Origin: Eledone cirrhosa
Lineage: Eukaryota
Direction: 5' to 3'
Assembly (NCBI GenBank): GCA_964016885.1
Contig: OZ024742.1
Location: 95,852,001 to 95,916,000, forward strand
DNA length: 64,000 nt
Position 1 is the first letter of the stretch; every line of letters begins with the position of its first letter. The position numbers and the translations under genes were made by a program. The notes under the pieces are model-generated. The model searched no databases and was not told where the DNA came from. It saw only the letters and a list, made by a program, of their open reading frames with translations. This document shows, one piece after another, positions 2,091 to 55,559 of the stretch.

Positions 2091-2880
2091 TTAATATTTG
2101 ATGAACATTTACATGTTTTAGTTGCAATCGACTAATAAAATCGCTAGAATGAAATATCTTAATTCAACAACATAAAGTTTGCCTGTACGATCTAAAAAAT
2201 AATAAATCAATACTCACAGACTCATATGGGCAAAAAGCCTTGGTACCTAGACACGTTTAAAATTCAAAATACAAACTTTTTCCGCAGATCGGTCAGAACT
2301 TCAAACTTCAAACATGTTTCACAAAGGATGGTATAATAGTGAAATAATTAACTAATTAGCAGTGAGTTAATCAGCTTTTTCTGTGTTTATCAATAGGTAC
2401 CCAGATAAAATTAAATAACTCCACCTCAGAAAAATATCTAAGGTCTGGTTAGCATAGCGAAAATACACGAGGTTTTGCACACGGCTTATTCCAGTCCTCT
2501 AACGTCCCACACATAGTGCTAGAAATAACAGCCGTTTATAGTTAATTATTTCACTATTATACCATCCTTTGTGAAACATGTTTGAAGTTTGAAGTTCTGA
2601 CCGATCTGCGGAAAAAGTTTGTATTTTGAATTTTAAACGTGTCTAGGTACCAAGGCTTTTTGCCCATATGAGTCTGTGAGTATTGATTTATTATTTTTTA
2701 GATCGTACAGGCAAACTTTATGTTGTTGAATTAAGATATTTCATTCTAGCGATTTTATTAGTCAATTGCAACTAAAACATGTAAATGTTCATCAAATATT
2801 AATTTATTCTGCTCAGAAGCGATTCTTAGAGCTGAAATGATTGTAAATGACCCCATTGAGTCTAAACTCTAAGCTATTTA
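2091..2880. repeat. Fold-back insert with 264-bp inverted arms (2091-2354 / 2539-2802) between TA tracts
   Basis: Arm 2 is the reverse complement of arm 1; I saw one mismatch (gcaatcgac vs gcaattgac). 184-bp spacer; unique 78-bp extension after arm 2. Confidence 0.93.
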
Positions 2881-2924
2881 TATATAGTTATATATATATA
2901 GTTATATATAGTTATATATAGTTA

Positions 2925-4243
2925 GGAGGAGTTTAAGACCGGATGCCCGTGGGAACTCCTGTATGCTGATGACCTCGCACTCATAGCTGAATCTATGGTA
3001 GAACTAGAGAATAAGTTCCAAACTTGGAAGCAGGGACTAGAAAGAAAGGGTCTCAAAGTCAACATGACAAAGACTAAGGTCCTTGTAAGTAGACGAGAAA
3101 ACAGAACCCAGATCCCCTCAGGGAAATGGCCTTGCTCAGTATGTAGGAAAGGTGTAGGTAGGAACTCCATTCTCTGCCCCAAATGCAAACAATGGGTACA
3201 CAAGAGATGTAGCGGGATCTCAGGAAGCTTAATTAAGAATGTAGGATTCACATGCAGCAGCTGTGCTGAGACAGCAAGCAGCAAACAGCCACAGGAAACA
3301 AGTACCACCAATCTCTGGGAGGGCTCTGTAGAAACAGTAGACAGCTTCTGCTACCTAGGTGACCGAATTAGCAGCGGAGGTGGGTGTTCAGAAAGTACAA
3401 TAACTAGGGTAAGAACGGGATGGAAGAAGTTTAGGGAACTACTACCACTGCTAGCTGAAAAAGGCTTCTCCCTCAAAATGAAAGGCATACTGTATGATGC
3501 GTGTATCCGAACAGCAATGTTGCATGGTAGTGAGACCTGGGCGCTGAAGGTGGAAGACTTACGTAGATTAGAGAGAAACGAAGCCTGCATGCTCCAATGG
3601 ATGTGTAACAGTAATATACGTGAACGACAAAGCATAAATGAATTGAGAGAGAGACTGAGCATAAGAGGAATCAAATGCTGTGTGCAGGAGAGGCGGTTGC
3701 GCTGGTATGGACATGTGATGCGTATGAAGGATGACAGCTGCATAAAAAGGTGCAGAGCACTAGAAGTTGATGGAAACCGCGGAGTGGGGAGACCCAAGAT
3801 GACCTGGGATGAGGTGATAAAAGCCGACCTTACCCAATTACACCTCTCAAGGACAATGACACACGACCGTGACTTCTGGCGTCACGCAGTAATACAGAGT
3901 ACCCGACCTCCCATGGGTACAAGCTGAAGCATATAGACAATATGCTCCCCCACCCCCACCCACCCCCACCGCAAGGTGGTCGTGGAGGTGCCACGGCAAA
4001 AAAGCACCCAGCCCACACTGTAAAGTGGACGTGTAGGCGCCACGAAAAAGCACCCAGCACTCACTGTAAATGAGGTTCGTGTTAGGAAGGGCATCCAGCT
4101 GTAGAAATCAAGCCAGATCAGTTCCTGTATGAGCAAGGCATGGTCAGCCGACCAGACACTGCCGACAACAGGACAACCCGTCTAACCCATGCTAGCGTGG
4201 AAGAACGGACGTAAAACGGTGATGATGATGATGATGATGATGA
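2925..4243 (+). mobile_element. 5'-truncated RTE-clade LINE with 3' UTR and (GAT)n tail
   Basis: RT C-terminal ORF, then a 3' UTR with 'gttaggaagggcatccag...aacccatgctagc...ggacgtaaaac' and a (GAT)n tail; inserted in a TA-rich tract. Confidence 0.93.
2926..3927 (+). CDS. RTE LINE ORF2 C-terminal fragment (reverse transcriptase with embedded C4HC3 PHD-like finger)
   Basis: Open frame from EEFKTGCPWELLYADDL through [58 protein letters not shown]. Confidence 0.92.
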   Translation, partial: EEFKTGCPWELLYADDLALIAESMVELENKFQTWKQGLERKGLKVNMTKTKVLVSRRENRTQIPSGKWPCSVCRKGVGRNSILCPKCKQWVHKRCSGISGSLIKNVGFTCSSCAETASSKQPQETSTTNLWEGSVETVDSFCYLGDRISSGGGCSESTITRVRTGWKKFRELLPLLAEKGFSLKMKGILYDACIRTAMLHGSETWALKVEDLRRLERNEACMLQWMCNSNIRERQSINELRERLSIRGIKCCVQERRLRWYGHVMRMKDDSCIKRCRALEVDGNRGVGRPKMTWDEVIKADLTQLHLSRTMTHDRDFWRHAVIQSTRPPMGTS

Positions 4244-4741
4244 GTCAGCATTACAGTCACTAGGGCTTCTTTACTTTTATGATTTTTTGTCTCATTTTAT
4301 ATATCTTTATAGAAATTTTTTTCCATTTTTCTCTGAATATATGTTTGTGTTTATTATTGTTGTTATTTTGTGTGTAAATGATATAATAAATGTTGTCAAA
4401 GATATGCTGTAAATTCTTTTGGGAACTCACTGTATTTTTTGCATTTTTATTTTGTTTTGTTTTTTTGTTACATTAGTTATTGTTGTTGCTTGATTGTTAG
4501 GAATACATTTACTCTTTAAAAAAATTAATAAAAAATTATCCTAAAGTGGGAATCTACATGTCATCTGTTTTTATGTTTTGAAACATTCTGAGAACATCAA
4601 AGATAAATTCAATTGAAGTATACGTGTAATTGACCTGAAACGATTAACACTACCCAGCAACTGTTGAAAACTTTACTCTGGCTTCAGTTGACTGCTCATT
4701 CATTTACTTTCATAATTTACTCAATGTTGTATTAAATATTT

Positions 4742-4773
<32 letters not shown>

Positions 4774-5032
4774 AGGCAAAGGTATGGCTGTGTGGTTAAA
4801 AAACATTTTGCTTTGGTTAATGTCCCACTGTATGGCATCTTAGGCAATTGTTTTTACTATTCTCTCAAGATGACCAATGCCTCTCTTCAATCACTGCAGC
4901 TCACTGTTGAGTTAAATACACGGCATCTAAAATGGATGCAGAACAGTGATGGTGATGATGTATATAGCTAGCATAGAGATGAAATCAGTAAAATGTCTTC
5001 ACTAAATAACAAACTTATGCCAGTGTTTTATG

Positions 5033-5104
<72 letters not shown>

Positions 5105-5187
5105 GTTTATTATTGTTATTATTTTGTGTGTAAATGATATTAATAAATGTTGTCAAAAATATATTGTAGATATATATATATATATAC

Positions 5188-5570
5188 ATGTGTAGTATAT
5201 TTGGCAATATACTGTATGTTTAATTAAAAACATTTTTAAAACCATTCGCTGACTTTTAAAGTAGTGACTATGTCACTTACTTATTCTTGACAAAAACAAA
5301 GGGAGGGTGATTGACAGTCTGTTTCTCACTTGTTAGCATTTATCAAGAGCACACACTCCCTTGCCTTTGCCGAGAATTATAGAAGCTGGATTTTATAGAA
5401 TTCCAGTAATATTTAAGAGCTGATTAAACAGAGAATTGCCAGTCCAGCAAAAATTAGGTATTAGTGTTGGTGCTCTGAAATAGTAATATATACAGGAATG
5501 TATGTGTAGTATATTTGGCAATATACTGTATGTTTAATTAAAAACATTTTGAAGACCATTTGCTATGAGT

Positions 5571-5572
<2 letters not shown>
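5188..5572 (-). mobile_element. TA-embedded insert with ~60-bp direct repeat (5188-5246 / 5502-5560) and a hammerhead-like motif
   Basis: Direct repeat 'atgtgtagtatatttggcaatatactgtatgtttaattaaaaacatttt'; flanked by TA tracts. Confidence 0.55.
5307..5352 (-). ncRNA. Hammerhead-like motif, U3-A8 core, imperfect stem I
   Basis: Minus strand: gtgctc TTGATAA a tgct aaca agtg a GAAAC agact GTC aatcac, within an extended gggag/ctccc helix. Confidence 0.5.
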
Positions 5573-5614
<42 letters not shown>

Positions 5615-5615
<1 letters not shown>

Positions 5616-5816
5616 CGAAGGAAAAGTGGTAAGGAACCAGGTGGACCATAACGCACCAAAGTACTCAATACTTAGGGTAGTAGAGTGGGTAATAGGAGTA
5701 AGTAAGACCCCGACGGCTGAGCTCAAGCCGTTTCGATGGCTAATTCTGTACTGAATTAGCCGTACAGAATTAGCCGTCGAAACGGCTTGAGCTCAGCCGT
5801 CGGGGTCTTACTTACT

Positions 5817-5821
<5 letters not shown>
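5615..5821 (-). mobile_element. Family-A short insert (Penelope-like 3' end) with fold-back arms 5692-5751 / 5762-5821
   Basis: Homologous to 22843-23209, 31473-31532 and 42258-42386. Carries the hammerhead 3' half GAAACGGCT-loop-AGCCGTC; TA flanks on both sides. Confidence 0.85.
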
Positions 5822-5896
<75 letters not shown>

Positions 5897-6323
5897 TGTA
5901 GGTCTGTATGTATGTATGTATATTAAGGAAGAGATGGAAATTTCAGTTCAACATATTTTATAATCACATGTAACATGTGTTTTGCAAATGACCAGACCAG
6001 AGCTTCAGTCAATGCAATCAGCTCAATAGATTTGCTCATCAGATGCAATGCAGATGAAAATCAGAATATGATTCTCTCATCAACAGGGTATCATTCAACT
6101 TCATTATCACCGTATAACATCTATTTTCCACGCTATCATAGATTAGAAAACTTCTTTCATTGTGAGACAAGCCAGGTCAGATGACCATGCCCTGCTCATA
6201 CAGAACTGATTTGGGCTTGGCTTCTACAGCTATATTATCTTCCTAATGACAACCACATTTACAGTGCGAACTGGGGACTTGGGTGGTGCAGGTACTGATG
6301 GATTAGGAATGTAGATCTTTTTC

Positions 6324-6380
<57 letters not shown>

Positions 6381-6389
6381 AGTTTTCCA

Positions 6390-6451
<62 letters not shown>

Positions 6452-6894
6452 TATTTATTAATATAACAGATTAAAGTTTAAGCAAAGAATCGCTGCTTTA
6501 CCTTTAACAGGATCTTCTGAAACTAAAAAAATTAATCTGTGAACGCAGAAGCAAATATTTCGAAAAATGTTGCAACCGATGGACAACAGGAAGACGAAAC
6601 TTTGGTTCGTGAAGACGTTCAAACAAAACCACGTTTATGGTATAAATGGAGTCTTTGCGTGTATTTGTTCTCATCACTCCACATAACGATGTATTATCTT
6701 TGCTTTTTTCTGTTCATTGCCAGGGAACGTCTTCACGATCCAAAGTATCGTCTTCCTGTTGTCCTTCGGCTGCAACGTTTTTCAAAATATTTACTTCTGC
6801 GTTCACAGATTGATTTTTTTAGTTTCAGAAGATCCCGTTAAGGGTGGAAGCAGCTATTCTTTGCTTAAACTTTAATCTGTTATTTTAATAAATA
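6452..6894. repeat. Fold-back element with ~170-bp diverged inverted arms (6452-6620 / 6725-6894)
   Basis: Arms are reverse complements with scattered mismatches; 'tcagttttccaaga' is duplicated at 6379-6392 and 6909-6922 outside the TA flanks. Confidence 0.88.
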
Positions 6895-6989
6895 TATATA
6901 TATATATATCAGTTTTCCAAGAGATATCAACACAAATTTTTTCCATTTCCAACCTGCCATCCCCTCAATCTATCTTATTTCTCATTCTT

Positions 6990-7025
6990 TCTTCTGATGA
7001 AGGACTAGCATCCGAAACGCCAAGA
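6990..7025 (+). ncRNA. Minimal type I hammerhead motif (cleavage triplet mutated)
   Basis: tctt CTGATGA a gga ctagca tcc GAAAC gcc aaga; GCC replaces the expected GTC. Confidence 0.65.
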
Positions 7026-7125
7026 CCCTCTTCCTATTATTTCAAGCGTTAACCTAATATATTCATTCCATATACTGTAGCAACTGTGTTGTTATTTCTG
7101 TTTACCTTTTACATACATATATATC

Positions 7126-7492
7126 TCTGGCGTCACACAGTAATACAGAAGACCCGACTTCCCATGGGAACAAGCCAAAGTATATAGGAAATATGCCCCC
7201 ATCCCCTCCCACTGCAAAGTGGTTGTGGAGCTGTCACGACAAAAAAAGCACCCAGACCACATCATAAAGCGGATGTGTAGGCGCCGCGGAAAAAAAGCAC
7301 CCAACACTCACTGTAAATGAGTTTGGTGTTAGGAAGGGCATCCAGGTGTAGAAATCAAGCCAAAATCAGTGCCCATATGTGCAAGACAGGGTCAGCCGAC
7401 CTAACATTGACCACAACAGGACAACCCGTCTAACCCATTCTAGCATGGAAGAATCGACATAAAACAGTGATGATGATGATGATGATGATGAT
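7126..7492 (+). mobile_element. RTE LINE 3' end (UTR and GAT tail)
   Basis: Collinear with about 3876-4243. Confidence 0.88.
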
Positions 7493-8905
7493 ATATATAC
7501 ATATATATCCTTCTCTGGAAAACATTACTTGTGTTCACATCTGGAGAGCAGGTGGTCTCCGCTAGGTTTAAAATGTCCAAGAAACACTGTTTATCACTAC
7601 AGTGCCTATCTTAACTCCATCAGAATTTGTTACATGTCTACATATACACAAACTTCCATATGGCATATTTCATCTTGATAGATTCAATTTAAAACCCTGT
7701 ATTTTTCAATCTCATTCATCCCTTACTTACATTCTTTAACTAGCTCTTTAATTATTTTAACTAGATACGGTCAACCCATGCTAGCATGGAAGATGGACCT
7801 TAAACGATGATGAGGATGATGATGATGATGACAGTCAACTACTTGTTTCTATAGCAAAGTAAATAAAGTAAATACAAACTCCTGAAACATTTTACAGAAA
7901 CACTGTGAATGGTTTTACAAAAGAAAAGGTTTATCCTCAGATGAAAGACCTTATCCAATTACTTTCATGAGATAGGAATTTGCTAAATATATCTAAGGAC
8001 CAGGTGGTGATGCCAAAGGCCTGTGAATTAGTTATTAAGGTGTTCAGCTCTAAATTGTAAGGTCATGAGTTCAATCCAACCCCCACCTTCTGGCAGCGTG
8101 TTGTGTCCTTGTGCAAAATATTTTAGTTCACTCAGCTGGAAAAATAAAATGTGTGGTTTTGTTTAATAGCTCCAAAGCTGCTTTCAAATGGCTTTGTAAT
8201 GAAAGAGTTAATGGCACACATGTCTGTGGAATGTTAACCACTTATATATTAATTTCACTAGCCTGCTGTTCTGTTGATCAAACAGCTGGAACACTTGGTG
8301 ACAGAACCAGTGGAGGTTCCACAGCAGGAACAAGGTGTAAAACCTGACAACGGATTAAAGTCAGCCACCTAAGCACAACTTGATGTGAATACACAAACAC
8401 ACATACAAAGACATTTACAGTTCATGATTCGCATTTTTCTATATAGAATTTATCAAAAATTATATTCATTATCCCAAAATTAGCCCCATTATCACCAGCT
8501 TAATATATATACGTTGTTTTTAAGTTGCCAATGAAAAGGAAACTGAAAGGAAAGGAAAACTGATAAAATGGCCAGTTTAAAATGACAGACAGTAAAGTGA
8601 ACATGAATGGCAAATGAGGACAATCTATTTTCATTCCTCATGAATTTCAGAAAATACAAAATAAGACAAAATAGAGGAGGAAATATGAAAAGTAATGAGA
8701 GCAAAATATAAAGACAAGAGAAAAAGTTGCTGTTTAATATTATGGAATGTATCAAAAGAGAGTATTCATCATGATAGGCTAGAGGATATTTTGAAATCTG
8801 GCGATAATATATATTTTATGCATAACATTGCTGTTGGGGCACTGAGTATGTCTATGTGGATGAGAGTATGTATGTGTATGTGGTGGTGAAAATCTAAGTA
8901 AAAAT

Positions 8906-8923
8906 AATACATATATATATATA

Positions 8924-8982
<59 letters not shown>

Positions 8983-9083
8983 CATGTATATATATATATA
9001 CATGTATATATACATGCATATATATATGTATATGTATATATATAGATGTATATATATATATGTATATATATATATGTATATAT

Positions 9084-9114
<31 letters not shown>

Positions 9115-9117
9115 AAC

Positions 9118-9148
<31 letters not shown>

Positions 9149-9311
9149 AACGTGTATATATATATATACATTTATATATATATATATACATGTATATATA
9201 TATATGTATATATATATGTATATGTATATATATATACATGTATATGTATATATATATATGTGTATATATATACATGTATATGTGAAGATAGACATAGAGC
9301 ATTTATACATG

Positions 9312-9368
<57 letters not shown>

Positions 9369-9720
9369 CATATACATATATATATGTATACATGTATATA
9401 TATAGATAGAGGGGGATAGTGAGGAGGAGGGAGGGAGGAGAGTGAGATAAATATTATATATGTATGTGTGTTTGAAGATATGCATACATATTTAGATATG
9501 TGCATATTTGACGATTTTTTTGCAGGATTTCATTATGTATGATGCGTAGGCTGCATATATAAAAAACATGTATACATAGATATACATACATATATAGATA
9601 CATACATATATACATACATATATATATATATATATCAAATGTACTTATATTCTAACATTATATTTACATATATATATACATACACATATATATATATATA
9701 AACACATATATAAACACACT
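8906..9720. repeat. Long interrupted (TA)n/(TACA)n microsatellite
   Basis: Seen directly. Confidence 0.95.
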
Positions 9721-13209: not shown

Positions 13210-13937
13210 CTCACTCTTTTAAGTTGTAAATTAGACTGGTTATCTACGCACGTGGCTGACACATTTCAGCTCGCTACTATATTGTTATATAATGGATGAT
13301 CGCATTTAAAGTCCGTTAAAGGTTCTTGGCACTACCATTGTTACCATCGTTTTCCTCTAGCCATGGGGCTTGGAGACATGAACCGAATGCTACCATTCTA
13401 TTTTATAATGTGAACTGCTATTTCTAAAAGCCATCTTTTCACCCCTTGATAATTTGTGTGGAGAGACGTTGGCTGAGTGCTTATGACAGGAACGAAAAGA
13501 TTGATTCTTTTTAGCTTCCCGTCCTCATGTAAAATTTGTAAATCAATGGCTAGTTGAGAGATAAAGTCCTATTGGTTGCCAGTTGCTAATTGCTTTACCG
13601 TGTTGGTTGTCACAAACAGTCATGACTGGCATGGGCCGGTGTTTGGATTCTGTCGATTGATTGGTTATTGATTAGGTGATACCCGCTGATGAAGCTGCAT
13701 AAGCCGATTGTGCATTGTTGCATAATATATGCAGACAGATGGTGCAGTGCACCTTACTGCTGCATTAGTGCGGCAGAAACTCGAGTCTGGGAACCTTATA
13801 GGCACCCGTTTTACGTGTGTTGTGTTGAGGCAAATAACTATGTGTATACTCTGGTAATGTATCTTACATTGCCCATTGAGTGCGCTGAGATGCAACCGGT
13901 ACTGGCATTGATAAATATGCTGGGTCCATCAACCTTT
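13210..13937 (+). mobile_element. TA-flanked insert with hammerhead, probable Penelope-like 3' end
   Basis: Bounded by TA runs; hammerhead at 13682-13791; CATTGAGTGC at 13874. Confidence 0.7.
13682..13791 (+). ncRNA. Type I hammerhead motif with large stem II insertion
   Basis: cccg CTGATGA a gctgca ...~70 nt... tgcggc a GAAAC tcga GTC tggg; palindromic stem III ACTCGAGT. Confidence 0.75.
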
Positions 13938-19157: not shown

Positions 19158-19343
19158 TTAATTTTATTAAGGGTAAATAGTAAGTCTTTTTAATCTGGAG
19201 TTCTGCTTGCTTCTCACAGGGACTCTCACAGGATGAGAAGCAGGCGAAACTCCAGAGTAACAAGACTCACTTGATAGCCTTAATAAAATTAATTTTAAAC
19301 TCTACACAGGCATTGAGTACTCTTTTCTCTCAGCCTCAACTAC
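19158..19343 (+). mobile_element. Short fold-back insert (arms 19158-19216 / 19234-19292) with hammerhead 3' half
   Basis: GAAAC tccaga GTA at 19246; CATTGAGTAC at 19311; TA flank. Confidence 0.7.
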
Positions 19344-19499: not shown

Positions 19500-19735
19500 T
19501 ATACATTTATTTTTTATCATTTATTTTGTTTTGACCTGTTTAGCTTGATTTGATTTTTGGCTTGGGTAGTTAATGCCTTCTTGACCACCTTTTCAGTTTT
19601 GTATGGCTTCTTAACACATTGTTTAGCTCTGGTTTTTAACTATTGAGCACTTTGCCAGTATCATTTTTGATTTTTGCATTTCGCTTCGCCTTTCGTGCCT
19701 GCCGAAATGCAATTCTCGCTGAATCTTTATTTGTA
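19500..19735 (+). mobile_element. Insert homologous to 32290-32500
   Basis: Shared 'ttttggctt.ggt.gttaatg.cttctt.acca...gttttgtatggc' and ATTGAGC motif. Confidence 0.7.
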
Positions 19736-22846: not shown

Positions 22847-23209
22847 ACGGAAGAGTTGTAGTAAGGAACCACATGGACCATAACGCACCAGAGTACTCAA
22901 TATTAGGGTAGTAGAGTGGGTAATAGGAGAAAGTATGACTCCGACGGCAGACCTCAAGCCGTTTCGATGGCTATTTTTGGACTAAAGTAAGAGTTTTTTT
23001 TTTAGTCTTGTAAATAAATAGCCAAACCTTTCAAGGGTACTTTCTTACATGGAAAGATTGTAGTTGTCAAGGGGATTGGTCAAAATTTGTAGCGGACACA
23101 GAAAGTTTGGCTATTTATTTACAAGACTAAAAAAAAAACTCTTCCTTTATTCCAGAAATAGTCGTCTAAATGGCTTGAGCTCTGCCACCGGGGTCATACT
23201 TTCTCCTAT
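22843..23209 (-). mobile_element. Family-A insert with fold-back arms 22923-23032 / 23101-23209
   Basis: Homologous to 5615-5821; the longer copy reveals the hammerhead 5' half. Confidence 0.85.
22939..23037 (-). ncRNA. Hammerhead-like motif with long stems II and III, U3-A8-type core
   Basis: Minus: ccc TTGAAAG gtt tggctattt ... aaatagcca tc GAAACGGC-loop-GCCGTC ggag. Confidence 0.55.
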
Positions 23210-23944: not shown

Positions 23945-24043
23945 TTATATATATATATATATATATACTTATATATATATATATATACTTATATATAATA
24001 AATAAATAACAAAGAACGCTTATAGCATATGCATATCTTTACT

Positions 24044-24089
24044 TGCTAACATTGTTTCATCCACACTATAAGTGGGACTCATCAGAGCA
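24044..24089 (-). ncRNA. Type I hammerhead motif at the Penelope-like 3' end
   Basis: Minus: tgct CTGATGA gtcc cac ttata gtg t ggat GAAAC aat GTT agca. Confidence 0.82.
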
Positions 24090-24775
24090 TAAAGGTTAAT
24101 TACATACCATACAAGCAATAATAAATCCAAGACATTGAAGAATGAAAGGTAATAATAGACGATAGAGGATAAGAATAAAAAATAAAAATAAAAGTAAAAA
24201 TAAAAAATAAAAATAAAAATAAAAATAAGGGGTGCTATCTGTCACAGTTGGGCGGTGTGCTGTCAACATATAGTTACATACAAGCATACACATGGATAAG
24301 AGAACAGACAAGAGTAGACACATGGATAAGAGAACAGACAAGAGTAGATAAGATAATGGGATTAGGTAAGAGTAGGTAAAAAATAGGTAAAAAATAGGTA
24401 AAAAACAGACTTATAATATATATAAAAAGAAATACAAAGAAATACATAACAAACTTACATATAAAATATAAAATATAGGGTAAGGAATGAGATAAAATAA
24501 TATACAATTAAAAATTAAAAATTATATACATAGAACATAATATAGTATAATCGTAAAATAAGATAAAATAAGGTAAACTAAAATCAAATAACATAGACTA
24601 AATTAAAATTAAAATCAAATGTGTAATTATAATTATATGTATAATTAAATGTAATTAAATGTAATTAAATGTAATTAAATAAATAAATAAAGAAATAAAT
24701 AAATAAAAATTAAATAAATAAATAAAATTAAAATTAAAATTTTAAAATTTTAAAATTAAAATCTAAATTTAAATA

Positions 24776-26420: not shown

Positions 26421-27860
26421 CTAGCTAACAGGTTTAAAGTAGAAGAAAGAGCTTAATATTCGGTGGGGGCAAGAGGAAAAAATTTCAGACTTTCTATTTA
26501 GTAGAGGGCATTTAGCAAATATAATAGAGTGGGATTCGGCAAGGCACAGGTTGCATACTCTACTATGAGGAGTATATGGATGGGATTTAGCAACCTGCCG
26601 CCAAGTAAGTGTGTAAGGTGTTCGTGCATTTTTTAAATTATGGACGTACGCTGCCAAGGAGGTGGAGTTCTTCAGTTTATTATGTCTAAAAGTGCATTGA
26701 TGAGAGTTAAACCTGGTCTTAAAGGGGGTGGAAGTTGATCCTATATAGGTCATAGTGGACGCCGTAGTTACCACATCACACGCATAAACTATGTTTCTAA
26801 CAAGGCAGAAACCATTCAGGGGGCAGCCCGAAGCCCTTCTACAGTTACAACCTCTGGTGATGCTATTCTCAGAAAGATCACCACCAGTGTTACTGCCCAC
26901 TCTATCCACTACCGTGTTTTCCCCTAGGCTTAGGTTGTCCAGGCCTTCCTTTATTTTCTTATTATTAGTAATGGCCAGATGAGAGGCTAGATTTTGGGTT
27001 GTAGAATATGAAAGTTTAACAACATTCTTATTGAGGATAGAGTGGTACCTATTACCAGGAGGGAAGTTCCGTTCTAGCACAGAGAAGAAGGCCCTAGGAA
27101 TATTTGTAGCCACTTCAGAATTAAAAGGGGGGTTGAAGTATGTATTCAATCTTCTTCTATTCTTTTTATTCTTTCTATTTCCATCAGTATTATTAGCATT
27201 ATTATTTCTACGGTTCCTATGCTCACCTAGTCTATGCGGGGAGCTGCGAGGCCCACCATTGCTATTACTTAGACTAATGGTGCCCTGCTGGTTCATTCCA
27301 CCGGCATCTAGAAACCTCCCATTCACGACACCTCTATTGTTATTACTTAGACTAATGGTGCCCTGCTGTTTCATTCCACCGGCATTTAGAACCCTCCCAT
27401 TCGCGACACCTCGATTACCAATGGACATATTATGTGTTATAACAACACTGGTAGAGCTACTATTAGGACCATTATTTCCCTGGGTGTAATACAATTTGTC
27501 CCTAAAGCCGGATCTAGCTAAGGCGTCGTTATAGTAATCAGCCTGCGAGTCAAACGCCTCCTCACTATGTGAGAGTGAACTTATTCTATTAGATACGCCC
27601 TTCAGTATACCGCTGATGACAGACCTAGGGTGGTTGGAGTAGGTATTCACGTAAGTCAGCAATTCATTGGGCTTATGGTACGGTGTGTACGTATGGTTAT
27701 CCAAGTCCAGTGTAACATCTAGGAAGTTCACAGTTCTATCATTTACATCCATTGTAATGGATAGGTTAAAAGTTTTAAAAAAGCTATGCAGCTTTTTCCT
27801 AATGCGCTCTATATTATACTTACTAGTATCTATGGAGAGTAGGGCGTCATCTCGGTACAA
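26421..27860 (-). CDS. Penelope-like polyprotein, C-terminal 479 aa (RT from YRDD, thumb, linker, GIY-YIG endonuclease)
   Basis: [53 protein letters not shown]...YIGST...[26 protein letters not shown]; uninterrupted frame. Confidence 0.93.
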
Positions 27861-27883
27861 CCCGATACTTATATATGTATATA

Positions 27884-27958
<75 letters not shown>

Positions 27959-31100: not shown

Positions 31101-31470
31101 TAAGTTATTCCGGGTTGAATCGGAGGTAACCACAGTAAGTAAGGTACTCAATACATAGCAGAGTATAAAAGTTTTAATATAGATGAGATTCTACAGGACT
31201 AGAACTGTTTCATACTTTAGAAATCATCAGGAATCTGGCTGTCCAAAATAAATGTTGTGGTATTTATATCTTTTCTGGTGGTAGGAGGGGTGGGGAGTGG
31301 GATGGGTGGAGGTCATTGGTTGAAAGAAAAAGGAATTCTTTAAAAGCTAATTCTTTACGGCTATAATTTATATTTAGAGTGACAAAGGCAGAAAGAATTC
31401 TATAAACAAGTTCAGATTGGGGAGCCACTCCTTATTTTTAAGTTTCTCTTAAGCTAACAATGCCATAAAT
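31098..31470 (-). mobile_element. Family-C insert with hammerhead
   Basis: Terminus homologous to about 35003-35120; GTACTCAATA at 31144. Confidence 0.75.
31186..31236 (-). ncRNA. Type I hammerhead motif (family C)
   Basis: Minus: agattc CTGATGA tttctaaagtat GAAACAG ttctagtc CTGTA gaatct; strong stems I and III, weak stem II. Confidence 0.72.
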
Positions 31471-31472: not shown

Positions 31473-31532
31473 ATAACGAGTGAATTGTGGTAAGGAACCA
31501 GGTGAACCATAACGCACCAGAGTACTCAATAC
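31473..31532 (-). mobile_element. Family-A terminal 60-bp fragment
   Basis: 'gtggtaaggaaccaggtg.accataacgcacca.agtactcaatactta' as at 5626-5674. Confidence 0.85.
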
Positions 31533-32087: not shown

Positions 32088-32500
32088 GGACTTCACATGT
32101 GCTTTGAACACTGTGGGGTTCTGGTGCACGCTGAACAAAATGCCTGTTGAGAAAGTGATATCTTTGTTCGATCATTATACCAAGAGCTTATTATTTTTTA
32201 TAAGCAGACAGTATTTTTGATTTAGGTGTCACAGAAACCCTATATCGGATTATACAGTCATTCCCAAGGGTCCGGGTAAATATTTCAATCATATCTTATT
32301 TTTGTTTCACCCGCTTAGCTTGCTCGCTTTTTTGGCTTAGGTGGTTAATGGCTTCTTAACCATCCTCTCGGTTTTGTATGGCCTTTTTAACTTATGTTTA
32401 TAGCTCCGGTATCTTCATATCCATTGAGCGCTTGCAAACCAATTCGGAAGTTGCGTTTCGCTAATTTCTACCTATCAAAATACGATTCTTGCTAAATGTA
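32088..32500 (+). mobile_element. TA-flanked insert with decayed U3-A8 hammerhead-like motif
   Basis: ctg TTGAGAA a gtgatatc ... ggtgtcac a GAAAC (about 32145-32257); CATTGAGCGC at 32422; 3' part homologous to 19500-19735. Confidence 0.6.
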
Positions 32501-34999: not shown

Positions 35000-35180
35000 G
35001 AGTCCCAGGTTCTATAGGGGGTAACCACAATAAGTAAGATACTCAATACATTAGTAGAATGTATACAACAAAATATAGAAATGGTGTCTACATGATGAGA
35101 ACTGTTTCATTTGAAAGCAATCACCATCCGATGATTTCCTTTGAATGAAACAGTTCTAGTCCTGTAGAAGCCATTTCTCT
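35000..35180. mobile_element. Family-C fold-back copy (arms 35077-35123 / 35132-35178) turning at the hammerhead core
   Basis: Plus arm reads ccgatga tttcctttgaat GAAACAG ttctagtc CTGTA gaagcc. Confidence 0.75.
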
Positions 35181-41795: not shown

Positions 41796-41800
41796 ATATA

Positions 41801-41840
<40 letters not shown>

Positions 41841-42257: not shown

Positions 42258-42385
42258 TAGCCGTTGAAATGGCTTGAGCTCAGCCGTCGGGGTCCTACTT
42301 GTTCCTGTTACCCATTCTACTACTCTAGGTATTGAGTACTTTGGTGTGTTATGGTCCATCTGCTTCCTTACCACATTTCCTTCAT

Positions 42386-42386: not shown

Positions 42387-42437
<51 letters not shown>

Positions 42438-46286: not shown

Positions 46287-46326
<40 letters not shown>

Positions 46327-48328
46327 TTAGTTTTATCAAAAAATGAAATATTTTCACTTGATTTGTTAATGTTTTTTTTATGTTAGAATTTAGGCTGTGT
46401 TAGAAAACTTTGTGGTGCTAATATCTGGATATATCATCATAAATCCACACTATCCATCCATATGAACATTGTTAATATTTTTCAAACATCATCATCATCA
46501 TCATCTTATCATTATCATCATTATCATCCTGCAGCAATTTTCTGTGATGGCATGGGTTGCACAGGTCATTATAGTCTGAGTATAGATGAGACAGAGAACC
46601 ATGTCTTGATCACATATTTTCATATTTGATATGGTTTCAATGGCTGGACATTCTTGCTAGTGACCACCATTTCGCCGAGTCTACTTGGAAATCCCGGCAC
46701 TACTTCAACATAAAGTGTACTGGGTGCATTTCATCATGACACAAGCAATAGTGAGGTTCTCATATAACCAAAAAGACTGGGAGTCATCTCTACATTATAT
46801 TATCTCCAATTACCAATCATTAAACATATACTAGGTACATTCAGTCGTTGTACCAACACCAGAGATGTTATCAATTCCTCAACAGGACCAAATATCGACT
46901 CTACTCTATGTCGTCTCAGGCTTTTTATCAACTGCTTTATCAAGAATACTTAGTGCATTCCACACATGGATTCAACAGAGTACATTATAATTCAAATGAA
47001 CCACAATATAATATGAAAAATTCTCAATAGAAATTTACAAATGATTATAAATGTTTCAAGGCTGCAGCAAATGTTGCTATCAATACCAAAACACTGAAAG
47101 ACGTATTCCATATACCATATTTAATAAAATATTATCATATTGCCTCACAGCTCTACAGATTTTTCCAGATTCCAGAGAGAAGGTTTTAGCTTTAGTTCTA
47201 ACTGCACTTCTTCAGGCTGGTCAAATAGATGAATGCTCCCATTGACCCATACATTTATAGTCACATAAGATACAATGTAAAATCATCACAAATATACAAA
47301 GATTACAAAATACAAGAATTTCTACACAACTTACTGAAAAATTCCTCGTTCAGAGGATGCAAATAATACTACAAAATGATCAACATGTGATAAAAAAAAC
47401 TAAAAGGTATTTATCTGGAGTCAATAAGACACATGAGCACAACATGTATCTTAATTCATCTTATTTAATTTGTAATCCACAAAAGTTTCAATGAAAATAT
47501 ATTAACAAGTGTATATATATATATATATATATATAACCATACATATATATATATATTAGACTGTGGACATGCAGGGCCCTGCCTTAATTTAGTAAACTGC
47601 AGTACTTATTTTTTTCAATTCAGATACGTATCTCATTGATCTCATTTTTGCTGAAACATTAAGTTATGGGACGTAAATACAAAGATATAAATGTAAACAT
47701 AGACAGACACACACACACACGTGCATGCATACATACATACATATATATATATATGTATAGATTTATGTATATGTATATATATAACACCATAAATATATAT
47801 GTATACAGAATTTTATGAATACAGGTTATTTTTTGTTGTCATGCATGCATACCTAAATGCACCAATATGCATATATATATACACATACATACTAGCAAAT
47901 TCATATGTGCACACATACATAAATATATACACAGATGATTCTGCTGAAATCAGTCTCTGTGTGCAAGTATGTATTTGTGTCTACCAACGTGTGTATGTGT
48001 ATTAGTTTGTGTAAGTACTGCCAAAAAGTAAATATATATAGATACAATATAATGTTTTCTTTATTGAGTACCATTATATTTATTACCTTAGAGCAAGCAG
48101 GGAGCAAATGAACACATCTCTCATGCCTCTATTGTGTTCAAGAGAAGCAAACTATGTGGTTTACTTCCTCCCTCTTCTGTCCCTATATTTTCTGTTGTTT
48201 TATTTTTTAACATAAGGCTCCAAGAAGAAGATGAAAATATACATCAATTCACTATGTTTAACAAGCTTCCTTTTATTCATGACATTTCATTCATTGAACA
48301 ACAAAGCAATAGAGAAGAGAATCTTGCT

Positions 48329-48374
<46 letters not shown>

Positions 48375-49025
48375 AAATTGGCTGTAGCTCTGAAAAAGCA
48401 TTAAGTGTAATAGGGTTTATATAAAAGTATATACTATATATTTATATACAATAAACATGTAGTAGCTTAGCTATCAAAGAAAAAATATTTTTCTCTCCTT
48501 TGTTCTGTGAACCCGTCACAGTATGCCAGCAGCAGTCAAGAATATATATATATGTGTATATTTATATATACATATTGATGATTTGCAGTATTGAGACAGG
48601 GAAGACAAGATGACAAATCAAAGAAATGCCTGATACATATAATGATGTTCAGTGGGTATATCAGAAGATCCCTTACTAATATATATATATATACAAACAT
48701 ACATTAGAATGCTGGATTAAATCATTGTCGGTATATCTTTCAGCTCACTGTCTCCAGAGTTTGAACACAGTACCAAAGAATAATATAAATTTGTCCAAGC
48801 TTTCCTACAAAGGGAAACGATCATTAAATGTTGATGATACATACATAGATACATACATATATGTATGTATATACATTTACCTAATAATATTGCAAATACA
48901 GTTACAAATTTCTGTATATGATATATGAACATACATAAATAAAATAAAAATAAAACACACACTAAGAATATAGTAGCAGTAATAGTAGTAGCAGTAGTAG
49001 CAACAGCAGTAGTATAGGAAAACCT

Positions 49026-49075
<50 letters not shown>

Positions 49076-49109
49076 CATCATTGTATATATATATATATAT
49101 ATATATCAT

Positions 49110-49157
<48 letters not shown>

Positions 49158-49519
49158 TCACAAGCAAGAAATATATTCATCAGTGAAAAGAAAAACTTCT
49201 ACAATTTTGTCTTCTGCAGACCTATGTTGTTGTTTGACATGAGGTTGAAGTGCTCAGCTAGAAGGGTGGAATGGTTTATGATCTATGTAAATATAAAAGA
49301 TAGTTTATTCTTAGCAGATTAAACACACAAGAAGTGCTTAATGGTAACATTCTATTCTCTAATATATATTGTTATGTGATATAAAAGTATATTTTTTATG
49401 TCTAAATTTTAACCTCAATGTCAAACTACACACCAAACATTACATTCATAAAACCTAGTATATGTGTGTGATTGGACGTGCATATGTGTGTGTGTATGTA
49501 AGTGTGCCTGTTTATGAGT

Positions 49520-49551
<32 letters not shown>

Positions 49552-49788
49552 AAATGTGTATTCACTGAGGATGGAAGGTGCAGTAGCGGAAGACTGCAAT
49601 AAACCTAGGCACATATGGTTTAGAGCTGATCTCAAAATGCTCAATTTCAAAGAGTATATGACAAAGGAACACCACAAGTGAAAGTAGGCTGTGTAAGAAA
49701 GGACATATCCAGCTCATGTAAGCATAGAAAACCAGACATAAAATGATTTTGATGTTGATGGTTATATATATATATACATATATGTGCG

Positions 49789-49820
<32 letters not shown>

Positions 49821-50899
49821 CATTGTCATCATCACCTTTTAATGTCCATTTTTCCACGCTTGTATGGGTAGGACAGGTAGTCACCTACCTTCTGAAACAA
49901 GGCAATGTTGCTCATATGAATATGTATTTTGGCTTAGTTTCTATGGCTGGATACCCTTCCTAACACCAACTGCATTATTGTGTGGACTGGGTGCTTTTTA
50001 TTGACATTTTGGAGTGGCAGCAACATAAAAAGGGAGCAAAACAGGACTAATACTCTGTCAACAAATTATAGATCCATACATTAGAAAGATCCCTCTTAGC
50101 CAACATATAGAGGAATTAGGGCAGGCGAACTTTATGAAACTCCAATGTCTTCTCATTCTACCAATGTTGCTAGTCAACATCAGAGTAAAATGCATTGGCA
50201 AAGAAAAGTTTTTATAGAAAAATGTAAACCAAAGCTGAAAGCATTGCATAGATAACATTTGATGCCTGGTCAGATAAGAGTTACATCCCTTGTCAAGAAC
50301 TGGAGTTGTTTTCGTCGACATAAGGGACAATGATACAACCAGTTGCATCCCTTATTTTAACAAGAACATAAGTGACAATAAAATTTCGAATGGCAAACTA
50401 ATTAATTAATCATGAAAAATCTTTTGAAACTATTCTTTTTGGTGGAAAAAACATTTTTCTTCATTATGTACTATGCACATATGTAAATACAAAAGTACAA
50501 ACACTGTTTTTTTTTGTAAAAAATATTTTTCACTATGTACTATAAAATGAAAACACATTAGGTGTTTTTTCAAATCTTTATCAATTTTCCTATATATTTT
50601 TTTCTTATATATAACTTGTATCGAAATTCTTAATCTTCCAACATTTTGATTTTTTTCTTTATATATAATATAATATGTATCATAATATAATATGTATCAT
50701 CATCATCATCATCGTTTAATGTCTATCTTCTACGCTAGCATGAGTTACATGGTTTTGTTTTATTTGATGTTGGAATGGTCGGGAGACCCTGTCTTGCTCA
50801 TACATTTACATATATATATGACTTACTTACAATTAGAAGCACCCAAATCTTGAGATGCATGAAGCAACCAAAATGCTCCAATAACCACAGTCAGTTGCA

Positions 50900-52180
50900 T
50901 CTATCAATACATCATTCCAACATTTGTTGACTGGTTCATGTTTCTGTCAATTGTCTACCACCAGTTCTTCTTGGGATGTTCTTTTCACCTCTCTCTGTGG
51001 AAGTACTACTACAGGACCTGATTAGCATGTTTCTCATTTGGTTGTCAGGTTATGTGCCCCTGCCAGCCAAGTCGATGCTTGTACATGATGTTAGATACAC
51101 ATTGATGCATTGTTGGCAAGTTTGTTGATTCAACTTTTGTTGGTGATGAATTCATACTACCTGATGCCAATGCTTTTCCAGAAGTTAAAAGCTTCTAATT
51201 TGTTCTCTTGGCTGGTCTTCACACTCCACATTTCACACCCAACATGAGTGCTGAAAGCACATTGCTGTTGTTAAATTTCATCTTGGTTCTTAGCCAAGGT
51301 TTTTTTAGGTGGCCAAAGCTTTGCCTATTCTACAATTAATTTATTTCATCATGTCCCCATTTTTGTTCATAGAGCTTCAGAGGTAGGTGAAGCCAGCCAT
51401 AAACTTCACATCCTCTTGATTAATGCAGTCATTTGTCATGATGGATACATATACTAACAATTGTGTTCTTGGTATTATTTTACACTGATGTGGAGACCGA
51501 TGCTGGCTGCAGATGAACCTCTCTCATCTATCAGATATTTCACAGTGGATGTACATTTGGCCATGGCAGCAATATCATCTGCAAAGTCAAGGTCTGAGAG
51601 CTTCTGTTCCTCTAGCCAGTCAATGCCCTTATCTTCTGTTGCTCTTTTGAGAATCCAGTCGATGGCCAAATGAAGGAGAATTGGAGAGAGTGGGCTTCCT
51701 TTGTGGACTCCAGTGATTAACTCAAACGACTCACTATAGCCATCCTCAGTTCTTACACAGTATTTTGAACCAGTATATAAATTCTTGATGGCTGAGACAA
51801 CCTTGGATAGTATACCATAAACTTGCTTGATATTCCATAAGTATAGTCTGTGTAGGCTATCAAATGCTTTAGTAAAGTCAAAGCATGTAATGGCAAGTGG
51901 TACTTGGAATTCATTGTATTTTTCAATGATAAGTAGATATTTTATTGGCACAGGGGCATTTGGGTCAGAATCCAGTTTGTTGTTCATGCAAGACTTTTCA
52001 TTTGATTCAGCATAACCTAGCAGTACACCTTTCATGGTTTGGATGGAAGTGTTATTTCGCTCCAGTTGTCTCATTCTGCAAGATTACTCTTTTGGAAGAT
52101 ACAGGCAATTGCTCCATTCTTCCAGTCTTCTGCTACCTCACCTGTATTCCAGATCTGTTTGCAGAACTGGCGCATCCATA
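50900..52180 (-). pseudogene. Decayed RTE-clade LINE reverse transcriptase
   Basis: FDFTKAFDSLHR, TGVHKGSPLSPILL, LSDLDFADDIA in ORF 51475-52074; degenerate continuation toward 50900. Confidence 0.88.
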
Positions 52181-52189
52181 ATCTTTAGG

Positions 52190-53130
52190 CCATAATAGAG
52201 GAGTTTAAGACAGGTTGACCATTGGAACTTCTATCTGCTGATGATCTGTTTCTCATAGCCGAATCTAAAGTAGATCTAGAGAACAAATTCAGACTGTGAA
52301 AAAAGAACCTAGAATCAAAATGGATGAGAGGACTCTTAGCAAAAACCAAAATGTTAATAAGTAGGAAAGAAGACAAGATAGTGATCCCCTTGGAGAAATG
52401 GCCTTCCTCAATATGTATAAAAGGAGAGGTAGAAACTCTATGCTATGCACACAATGTAAATCTTGGATACACCTGAGATGTAGCAGTATAGCAGTATAAC
52501 ATGAAATAAACATTTTGCTTGTAATAGATATTCAGGGAAAATTAATAGTAAGAATTTCAGTGATATATACCTTTTCCAGCTCCAGGTGGGATCCATAAAG
52601 GTGGTTCATAATTTTTGCTATCTAGGTGACCAAATTAGCAGTAGAGGTGGGTTACTGGAGCATAGTAGCTATGACTGAAAGGTGGGATGTATGTTGCATG
52701 TGTGAAATGCTGCATGATAGTGAAACATGGGCAGTGACTGAGTGACTGCAAAGGTTGGAGAGAAATGAAGCAAGCATGCTTTGATGGATATGCAATGTTA
52801 ATGTGCATGAACAATACAGCGAACAGAATGGATTATTATTTGAGAGTGGAACTGAGTATAAGAGGAATTATATTTTCTGTAAAGGAAAGAAGACTGTGCT
52901 GTTATGGATATATCATGCATATGGATGATGATCGCTGGGTGAAGAAGTGCACAAAATCTCAGTGGAAGCAAGCTGCAGTAGTGGTAGACCAAAGAGGACC
53001 TGGGCAGAAGTTGTGAAGACTATTCTTAAATTACCAAATATCATGGTAGAGATGACAAAGGACCATAACAAGTGGAGAGATGCTGTATTAAAAAGGATCC
53101 CTCTAACCCATTCACACTTGGCAAAGCAAA
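52190..53130 (+). mobile_element. Decayed copy of the PHD-bearing RTE family
   Basis: 'gagtttaagacaggttgaccattggaacttctatctgctgatgatctg' aligns with about 2929-2976; frame disrupted. Confidence 0.85.
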
Positions 53131-53132
53131 TA

Positions 53133-53520
53133 TAAAATAATTGTTTCTACTTTTGGCACAAGGCCAGCAATTACCCAGTGCATTACTGGTACTTTATTTT
53201 ATCGACCCCGTAAGGATGAAAGGCAAAGTTAACCTCGGCGGGATTTGAACTCAGACCATAAAGGGACATAACTATGCTGAAAAGTATGGCGTCCGACCCT
53301 CTACCGATGCTGCCAATCCATGTAAAATAATTGTTTCTACTTTAGGCACAAGGCCAGCAAATACCCAGTACATTACTGGTACTTTATTTTATTGACCCCG
53401 TAAGGATGAAAGGCAAAGTTAACCTCGGCCGGATTTGAACTCAGACTGTAAAGGGACGTAACTATGCTAGAAAGCATGGCGTCCAACCCTCCACCAATAC
53501 TGCCAATCCATGTAAAATAA
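53133..53520 (-). mobile_element. Tandem pair of tRNA-derived SINEs (190-bp period) with Meta-type core
   Basis: Minus: A-box tggcagcatcgg, B-box gagttcaaatcc, core 'tttgcctttcatccttacggggtcgataaa...agtaccag'. Confidence 0.85.
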
Positions 53521-54149
53521 TGATCATCATACATATACACACTGACAAATCCTGTTAGACAATATTTCAACAGAAGAGAAGAAACGTTTTCTCATAAGAA
53601 AATTCAAATAATCGTTGTTTAACTATTTTTCTCTACTGAATACATTCAAATTAGAAACAAGTGTAGCATGTGTAACCTGGGACTGCAGCAGCAAAGAATG
53701 GCACCTAAAATTAAGCATACAACACAACCAGCCTGTTATATGAAGGATTTTTCAAATTTATGTACTGTAATCACATAACGTTAATATTATGTATAGTTAT
53801 ATATTTAATTATATTGAGAAACAACATAAACTAGGCATATAGTTATTGAAATATATATCAAATTAAAATTGCTTCACTCTGATAGTGGCTAAATGTGTTT
53901 AAGAATTTGCTTCACAATCATATATACACAGAATGTGCACACACACATTTATATTATAGTTGCATGCATCTTATACATATACAATCACACATATACGCAC
54001 ATGCACTCAAGCACTCACAGATACACAGTAACTACAATTAGAGAGCTTATTTAGCCTTAATCTCTCTACAGAATATGCCGTGGCTCACATTGAAGAAACA
54101 AGGAATAATCTGGTAACCCCTTTCCATTCACATCATCTTAGACACAGAA

Positions 54150-54470
54150 ACCACACAAATACATACATTCACACCATATGCATACACAAATGCCATACAT
54201 ACAAGCCCACCTATTCCATTTACACACATACTGCACAAATACATACATATATACATTCACACCATATGCATACACACATGCCCACCAATTCCATATACAC
54301 ACATACCACACAAATACATATATACATACATATACACCATATGCATACATAAATGCCATACACAGAAGCCCACCTATTCCATAAACACACATACTGCACA
54401 AATACATACATACACAATATATGCATACACAAATGCCATACACACAAACGAACCTATTCCATAAACACAC
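54150..54470. repeat. CA-rich minisatellite, about 4 imperfect units of 65-90 bp
   Basis: Repeated 'caccatatgcatacacaaatgccatac...cctattccat'. Confidence 0.8.
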
Positions 54471-54570
54471 TACACTTGTACACAATAGCACGTGTACATG
54501 TCACACACAAATACATTTTCACTTTACTCTCATTAATCACAAAAACGAATTTGTAACTGCTGCTAATACA

Positions 54571-54603
<33 letters not shown>

Positions 54604-55559
54604 AGTGGTGGTTGTGGTATAAGTGGCAGTGCTGGTGCTGGCAATGTTGGTGGTGGTGGTGGTATTGTTGCTGTTACTGTTGTTGGTGCTGGTGGTACTG
54701 AGGATAGTAATAATGATGTTAGTGGTATAATGATGATAACAATGCTGATGATTATGATGAATATATTCATAATAATAATAATGGTGATGATGATGATTAT
54801 TGTGTCACTAACAGCAGAGTTTAAATCAATTTTCAAAAGACTATTATTCCATATTAACTGACATCAAACTAAACCACTTAATGCCACACAATGTTTGAGA
54901 CAAACACCAGATCCTGGTGATTGATTTTTCCTTGATTTCATTAAGAATTTGCATCTTCCGTTAGAAACTATTAGAAGCAGAAATTGGTGTATGGAACCAA
55001 GTCTATAATTGGGTGTTTATGTGTCTTTTATTTTCTGTCGATCTGCATACTTTTGCTAAAGGAACTCTGATGACACTAATAATGATTTAGGTGTAACTAT
55101 GATTGTGTATATGAATATCTGCACAGATATATTCATATGTGTGTGTTTGTGTATGACTATGTGTGTATGTATGTAAATATATATATATATTGGTTATATT
55201 GGTTTCCATTTGTACATATGCATAAGTATATCCATTAATTGAACATAAACAAATCTATACTTAAACATTGTTATCCACAAACACAAGCAAATACAATCTA
55301 AAAACTTGTATTCAGTTTCAGTAACCTGAACCAATCTGGAACATAATCTATCCTGACGAAGAACTTTCGTTTGGTCCTATCTAGGCTGGTTGCACTAATG
55401 TTATTGTGATCAACTCTTTTAAGACAATGAACATTCTTTTGTTAGGATAACTTAGGTTAAAATCATATACATTCTCTATTATTTTGCATTGAGTACTCAT
55501 TTAAAAGCTTCACCATTACTCTCATATTAAGTAAAACCATCAGTTAGTTGCCTCATAGT

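Follow-up and report, generated by a model that had tools for sequence, protein, structure and literature searches.

Twin bulged hairpins beside the copy ends of Hydra-type Penelope-like elements in Eledone cirrhosa

We analysed a 64,000-nucleotide stretch of the Eledone cirrhosa genome (assembly GCA_964016885.1, contig OZ024742.1, positions 95,852,001 to 95,916,000 of the forward strand; hereafter the window), in which a first-pass annotation had reported a ten-letter word, YATTGAGYRC, near the 3′ end of hammerhead-bearing inserts. The word corresponds to the 3′ strand of a bulged hairpin predicted from the sequence, RCTC-[variable stem-loop]-T(N)-GAGY-RC. Full-length copies of the carriers, which are Penelope-like elements (PLEs), have two such hairpins between the hammerhead and the ATG. 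Copies end just before either hairpin, and the pair therefore likely tells the copying enzyme where to start. These results support the annotation's proposal of a cis-element conserved near the 3′ end of hammerhead-bearing Penelope-like inserts; what is conserved is not a linear word, however, but a base-paired structure present twice per full-length element. PLEs are the closest mobile relatives of telomerase, and their one-sided tail, although long described, has had no feature of the sequence assigned to it as a cause. Our literature search, whose coverage ended short of subscription journals and Repbase reports, found no description of this hairpin, which is a real and apparently undescribed structural element of a known retroelement clade.

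Hairpin pairing and copy ends

The RCTC upstream of the word pairs with GAGY, and between the two strands lie a stem-loop of free sequence and length and then a bulge that starts with T. The spacer is 3 to ~60 nt long, and its inner stems are paired. Between families the pairs change together: ACTC occurs with GAGT and GCTC with GAGC, the bulge is closed by T-A, C-G or G-C, and in one family the middle pair is compensated (GTTC/GAAC). The ten-letter word overlooks bulges of TA, TC or a single T and closing pairs of C-G or G-C. A descriptor of the shape matched 59 sites in 800 kb, with (TA)4 within 130 nt downstream in 49 and upstream in 27, whereas 31 control descriptors with another core or bulge letter matched 2–37 sites, at most 10 of them with a downstream (TA)4.

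We measured the pairing in an anchored test on 21 leader clusters, 6 from this genome and 15 from metagenomes (2 of the 21 are not true leaders and were kept in). T-N-GAG and the nearest upstream CTC served as anchors, which leaves two pairs free and avoids circularity. Both free positions were Watson-Crick in 24 of the 44 sites, against 1 of 24 in antisense and 0–1 sites for each of ten control descriptors. At the closing position, 24 of 30 sites had a matching pair and shuffled data gave 12.8; this comparison does not correct for relatedness. A covariance model trained on sequences from outside the window gave 64 matches in 17 clusters among 56 non-training loci; (TA)4 was located downstream of 58 and upstream of 37 of these matches, the base rate being 18%. 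Common variants inside the two family A hairpins in the contigs of run X1 fell in loops (four) or kept a G-U pair (one). An alignment (A2) with 98% of its pairs formed was rejected as pairing evidence because its rows had been picked by the pairing descriptor, which makes the count circular; it shows pair types only.

Copy ends and fold-back pairs were mapped in 136 stretches at fixed genome positions. TA-flanked ends formed two peaks, one just 5′ of each hairpin, and in 111 of 146 cases the end preceded a hairpin by −1 to 12 nt, compared with 16.8 expected. The ends generally preceded the hairpin by ~2–6 nt, with modal gaps of 2–5 nt. Loose (TA)n ends were found at 1286 and 1366 of locus L245, where the hairpins start at 1292 and 1370 (run X1 possibly comes from the same sample). 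A second hairpin between the first one and the ATG was observed in families A, G, N, H and J and in two more families. Tail length and hairpin spacing were 80/78, 184/184, 94/92, 89/90 and 71/71 nt in five families. The value for N comes from a small number of copies, exact ends were not obtained for J, and the 71/71 pair is that of family B, which uses a variant stem and for which this point was assigned by hand.

Forty-four fold-back pairs were collected. One arm was unclassifiable in 13 of these; the other 31 all consisted of one inner and one outer end (31/31, 15.5 expected if the arms were independent), and each had the canonical PLE structure described in PMC8557442, an inverted 5′-truncated copy with a one-ended tail. 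A family A fold-back insertion in (TA)n at 5615..5818 of the window (minus strand) illustrates this arrangement. Its long arm ends at the outer terminus (~5615) and its short inverted arm at the inner terminus (~5818), with the 3′ half of the hammerhead starting at 5734 and hairpin 1 at 5661..5686 (minus strand, 30.7 bits; ACTC, 4-bp inner stem, TT bulge, GAGT-AC). We regard both the pairing pattern and its constant placement relative to the two copy ends as well supported.

The window contains 12 exact matches of YATTGAGYRC, compared with a mean of 1.25 and a maximum of 5 in 100 shuffles; with one mismatch allowed, 34 matches were found against 30.8 expected, and the excess was gone. In 80 stretches of 10 kb at fixed genome positions 44 matches were found, where Markov models give 7–15. 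Genome-wide (3.0 Gb, rich in (TA)n) the numbers are 146,258 for the word and 11,650 for the backwards pattern, a control that contains CpG-bearing words and with which chance is probably underestimated. By eye, 27 of the 44 sampled matches come from two families and 7 were assigned to no tail; raw match counts therefore mostly represent copy number. This concentration, the three unsupported or weak sites in the window and the relatedness of all typed carriers are what one would expect if the word had no function and reflected a few high-copy families, shared ancestry and chance. Such an explanation is extremely improbable, and the anchored pairing test together with the mapped ends goes most of the way to refuting it: paired changes occur across unalignable leaders, the same motif is present in coral and sea-cucumber consensi, and the distance to both ends is fixed.

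Two further candidates were rejected. Coding constraint (I-E-Y/C/H/R, or V/A-L-N in antisense) does not fit sites that precede the first ATG at distances in any frame, and the two matches inside ORFs (open reading frames) look like chance. A linear promoter or an NK-type factor site, which the word resembles, leaves the compensated complement unexplained.

Proposed start sites of the copying enzyme

We consider it rather probable that the hairpins bind the reverse transcriptase (RT) and set its two internal start sites, and the one-sided tail of PLEs is best read as the result of these two starts. The hairpin would fold on the sense RNA, probably held by protein, and the RT would bind it and start a few bases 5′ of it at TA. 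The endonuclease would cut both strands of the (TA)n target, and each DNA end would use one site. Extension of one DNA end from the site before hairpin 2 would give the long arm, with hairpin 1, and with it the ten-letter word, in the tail; extension of the other from the site before hairpin 1 would give the short arm. The TA letters at both sites may pair briefly with the cut target. A solitary insert without hairpin 2 would yield no tailed daughters, and tandem copies would be the sources.

A protein of the Poseidon clade cuts and extends both strands, and two internal starts bound the tail; RNA to +172 is required although synthesis starts at 111–118 (PMC11167929). The need for RNA 3′ of the starts predicts an anchor 3′ of each start, which is where the twin hairpins sit. 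If the ends observed here are starts, the two tail-bounding internal starts are shared with Poseidon_Ac. The Poseidon_Ac starts fall in an AC-rich stem-loop inside the ORF, and the available part of PMC11167929 names no repeated anchor, whereas the conserved hairpins described here belong to an untranslated leader, with one located 3′ of each end.

From the end positions alone, a cut site looks the same as a start site. The hairpins might be read as DNA by the GIY-YIG endonuclease, in single-stranded complementary DNA or as an extruded stem, the ends then being TA cut sites; PMC8557442 ascribes the tail to endonuclease-mediated resolution, and the tail of D. virilis Penelope is needed for endonuclease recognition, as cited in PMC11167929. 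We regard this explanation as unlikely. Spacers of such variable length with paired inner stems are unlike a duplex DNA site, the G-U cells of the inner stems and the UUCG loop found in relatives of family C elsewhere in the genome suit RNA, and the Poseidon ends coincide with RT start sites (PMC11167929).

The hairpins could instead be stop signals like the template boundary of telomerase, a few bases short of which an enzyme that copies an antisense template or makes the second strand would come to a halt. Antisense templates have been argued for Penelope (PMC3846280), the templates of telomerase and DRT10 end beside a stem (PMC12632851), and the gap of 2–6 nt suits a roadblock. The inner stems contain 5 G-U and 0 A-C cells, which favours a fold of the sense strand in a strand test that rests on 7 cells, and in vitro the template is sense RNA (PMC11167929). 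Moreover, the stems are weak, and a conserved unpaired U together with the RC that follows the stem hints at recognition and not just at a barrier. We hold a stop signal to be quite unlikely. The elements share with telomerase and with SL5 of DRT10 a related RT and template use fixed by an adjoining stem; in those systems the stem is 5′ of the template and brings synthesis to an end (PMC12632851), whereas the stem here is doubled and, on the sense RNA, is found 3′ of the copy end, the place expected of an anchor that positions the start. It would be a boundary element only if the template were antisense.

A third alternative, which we judge very unlikely, is that the hairpins guide RNA processing (cleavage or 3′-end formation 5′ of the stems) or the transcription or translation of the leader, and that copy ends mirror RNA ends. 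Both hairpins precede the ATG within the leader, a region reported to contain PLE promoters (PMC8557442). Processing does not readily yield one inner and one outer end in every classifiable insertion, a promoter word has no need for a compensated complement at variable distance, and the Poseidon template need not end at the start site (PMC11167929). The first-pass annotation had left RT recognition, 3′-end processing and a pseudo-long-terminal-repeat (pLTR) promoter side by side; RT recognition fits best of the three.

Several results weigh against start-site selection by the hairpins. When single sequences were folded, only ~3 of 11 window sites had the hairpin in their minimum-energy structure, and none of 5 whole leaders (0/5) gave two separate hairpins. 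In an unbiased sample the canonical hairpin followed 10 of 29 hammerhead clusters, with 2 upstream and 4 antisense in controls. In most junction copies of family B that were read, a plain 4-bp stem (GCAC/GTGC) replaces the bulged second hairpin, and 15 of 26 ends in this family have no canonical hairpin ahead. No ORF-bearing copy was found among the fetched loci for families C and D and for the element at 13874. The supporting in vitro data are from Poseidon, another clade than the Hydra type. Metagenome ends mapped by BLAST gave a null result (7 of 51 before a hairpin, 6.6 expected); this was ascribed to cross-family matches, and the mapping was therefore redone by exact walking, in which 10 of 18 ends lay before a hairpin compared with 2.7 expected. 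Among published Hydra consensi, as far as the available part of the PMC8557442 supplement goes, Hydra-1_Crog has a variant hairpin that is not a clear motif, and Hydra-1_Amil and Hydra-1_Obim have no hairpin readable by eye. To these are added points given above: the few cells of the strand test, the hand assignment in family B and the 13 unclassified fold-back pairs.

The bulge of the hairpin resembles the arginine sandwich of human immunodeficiency virus (HIV) TAR and of 7SK, with which it shares the order paired base, bulged U, G-C, A-U, G-C (PMC6189040). The match, a bulged pyrimidine 5′ of a G-C and then an A-U pair, is one of secondary-structure pattern only. The bulged U23 of TAR is part of a triple with A27-U38, and arginines are stacked on it (PMC6189040); Hydra-type proteins have an arginine-rich stretch, described below. 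The bulged U and the following G-C and A-U pairs of the hairpin may form a similar base triple. The loop of TAR closes the opposite side of the bulge (PMC6189040), and one Hydra-type family swaps the middle pair of the pattern (GTTC/GAAC). No homology is implied, and the likeness is a lead.

Short RNA structures select the template and place the start in several other systems, such as the 3′ stem-loops of long and short interspersed nuclear elements (LINEs and SINEs), the 3′ untranslated region (UTR) of R2 and epsilon of hepatitis B virus. These systems have one signal per RNA, which is copied into the product or used as the priming template, whereas solitary inserts here do not include hairpin 2.

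A further possibility is that a doubled TAR-like hairpin has been kept across cnidarians, echinoderms and this genome and holds two RT active sites on one RNA, with both ends of the (TA)n target primed at two internal sites in one event; we put this forward tentatively, as somewhat less than an even chance. If true, the two-start route would explain why there is a tail, why it is one-sided and why the arms are head-to-head, and a portable signal of ~25 nt could aim a telomerase-like RT at any internal RNA position. The doubled hairpin, with its spacing equal to the tail length, would tie the start site to the hairpin position. The hairpins also supply a criterion by which repeat libraries can define where an element begins and ends, and perhaps a brief label with which an RT could be steered to a desired place on an RNA.

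Carrier elements and their relatives

Family A follows a PLE ORF in loci L111, L062 and L072 and is linked to a full-length ORF in L245, and family G follows one in L046 and L110; tandem full-length copies were obtained for families A, G and N. The annotation's description of the inserts as otherwise unrelated holds for their DNA, which is unalignable, but the three aligned proteins (A, N and G) are 40–45% identical and of the Hydra type. Each of the three families has a single ORF with an RT plus a GIY-YIG endonuclease at its C terminus. DKG is replaced by DKT and occurs with RWR or RWK, the metagenome ORFs have DKT or DKS with RWK, and an N-terminal GxKF/Y is absent. By eye, the CxCx5C linker and the CxxC and CxH around a conserved E and N are present and CCHH is absent. 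DKT, R-W-K/R, the linker and the CxxC and CxH around E and N are shared with the Hydra clade (PMC8557442), as are the absence of CxxC before YIG, the hammerhead, the (TA)n targets, the tandem and inverted copies and the one-sided tail. Two cysteines do precede YIG in this genome's Neptune-like ORFs. Judged on sequence, the families with a traceable ORF are Hydra-type PLEs.

The hammerhead, a ribozyme known here from its sequence, and insertion into (TA)n likewise agree with the Hydra clade. Families A and G have the U3-A8 core, a form described in PMC4209133; a pattern search of family A for the canonical C3-G8 core returned 41 mostly accidental matches and was rejected. The description of the Hydra clade available in PMC8557442 mentions no hairpin. 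It gives units generally <3 kb, compared with 3.5–5.1 kb here (tandem periods of 3.5, 4.5 and 5.1 kb), and the units are longer because of longer untranslated regions and linker inserts. The tails, at 71–184 nt, also exceed the 30–40 nt described for PLEs (PMC8557442). Pfam searches matched no PLE family. Rfam gave only four weak microRNA-repeat matches in seven loci with leaders, and among the matches listed for the window (150 of 205) all were of the microRNA type and below the cut-offs; this null is weak evidence because Rfam overlooked the hammerheads too.

The proteins of families A, N and G and all 15 metagenome ORFs listed have an Arg/Lys-rich stretch just before W(F/Y)NPP, a candidate RNA-binding segment. 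Family N is very young, with many copies, endonucleases 97–100% identical and the tandem period of 5.1 kb; in one copy, in L216, a part of its own 3′ UTR is inserted, inverted and in frame, into the linker that joins RT to endonuclease. Family D forms ORF-less tandem units of ~623 bp (minus strand of L076, 595-1218) with a long-armed U3-A8 hammerhead, and these units (19641 and 32422 in the window) resemble the animal retrozymes of bioRxiv 10.64898/2026.07.22.740005.

Two typable hairpin-less families in the hammerhead sample have Neptune-like endonucleases. Neptune-like PLE families with a hammerhead and (TA)n and without the hairpin occur at 6756 on the plus strand of L253, with ORFs in L070, L086 and L072, and in L102. 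The commonest hammerhead cluster in the sample (26 copies, including 30312 plus and 30026 minus in the window and 5168 on the plus strand of L300) also lacks the hairpin and has a different GC-rich stem near its end.

By sequence, twin hairpins of this predicted form occur in telomerase-related elements of several animal phyla. In a metagenome scan, taken from the best 80 of 159 related loci, 21 of 30 leaders contained a hairpin with an inner stem of at least 2 bp, compared with 4 in antisense and 0 inside ORFs; most of the remaining leaders have, by eye, the form with a single closing pair. Many of the leaders have two hairpins. The hairpin was downstream of 19 of 35 hammerheads, upstream of 0 and antisense in 9. 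Visual reading of six Hydra consensi of PMC8557442 showed one hairpin after the hammerhead in Hydra-2_Amil (coral) and Hydra-2_Ajap (sea cucumber) and two before the ATG in Hydra-1_Ajap. Matches to four 8-mers in the available supplement of PMC8557442 were rejected; most of them fell inside ORFs of the Naiad and Chlamys consensi, and some further ones are masked by line breaks in the file. A hairpin match in the 3′ region of Naiad_Mmer was treated as chance, its relative Naiad_Scon being without it.

In L329, L343 and L366 a third, bulge-less stem (ACTCA/TGAGT) lies just after the hammerhead, ~125–133 nt before the ATG. Hydra-1_Amil has a stretch similar to this stem.

Hairpin sites and other features of the window

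The coordinates and strands of the 11 exact sites reported in the first-pass annotation were all correct, and a twelfth exact match lies at 48062 (plus strand). Ten of the 13 sites that it listed in total are hairpin tails; the site at 55487 is weak, and those at 2854 and 36665 are without a hairpin. A complementary 5′ strand was found at 5661, 13874, 19311, 19641, 22893, 31144, 35039 and 42330, and at 32422 with one mismatch adjoining the bulge; the copy at 31522 is cut just 5′ of the motif. The next (TA)3 is 29–83 nt downstream at the ten supported sites. The covariance model found ten of the listed sites, weakly in the case of 32422, 13874, 55487 and 35039, and did not recover 31522, 36665 and 2854. 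No credible partner strand and no covariance-model match were found for 36665, 48062 and 2854. The annotation had counted at least six families, of which five (with four, two, two, one and one sites) are supported.

Family A has the sites at 5661, 22893 and 31522 on the minus strand and 42330 on the plus strand. Besides the copy in the fold-back insertion, its hairpin 1 lies at 22893..22917 (minus, 26.3 bits) and, with one C-to-T change in the 5′ strand, at 42314..42339 (plus, 21.9 bits); a truncated fragment at 31522..31531 (minus) has the 3′ strand only. Family B has two sites on the minus strand, hairpin 1 at 31144..31164 (26.4 bits) and a decayed relative at 35039..35060 (10.5 bits). A type I hammerhead lies upstream of the former at 31188..31236 (minus; lower bound approximate), its core starting at 31230.

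Family D, on the plus strand, has a hairpin of the GCTC/GAGC form at 19626..19650 (site 19641; 29.2 bits) and one with a mismatch by the bulge at 32403..32431 (site 32422; 17.6 bits), for which a U3-A8 hammerhead core was seen by eye at 32147. The two single-site families are family C, with hairpin 1 at 19299..19320 (site 19311, plus, 28.8 bits), and the element at 13874, whose hairpin 1 at 13848..13883 (plus, 14.3 bits) has a long inner stem and whose hammerhead core is at 13686. A possible decayed hairpin at 55471..55496 (plus) is weak (13.6 bits, E 0.82) and has no relatives among the fetched loci.

Two extra hairpins had been overlooked by the ten-letter word. The first, at 1969..2004 (minus, 18.2 bits), ends in GAGC-TA and has a relative in L279; the second, at 59171..59198 (plus, 15 bits), has a G-C closing pair and a TA bulge, and its relative in L272 has twin hairpins.

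Family N is represented on the minus strand by a 5′-truncated ORF of the Hydra type, encoding the RT thumb and the GIY-YIG endonuclease (26421..27884), and by a hammerhead with the inner terminus of the copy (23995..24095, core at 24085). This copy stops ~4 nt before hairpin 1 and has no tail; it lacks the motif because it stops at the inner end.

Positions 2091-2354 and 2539-2802 form a 264-bp inverted repeat, 99.6% identical and flanked by TA runs. The variant at 2854 is located where this inverted repeat ends on the right, within a short repeat shared with L025, where GAGT pairs with a downstream ACTC. Fragments of non-long-terminal-repeat (non-LTR) retrotransposon RTs, one with a PHD finger, were found at 2926-3927 (plus), 57876-58363 and 61255-63693, together with numerous copies of a short repeat that terminates in (CAT)n-like runs.

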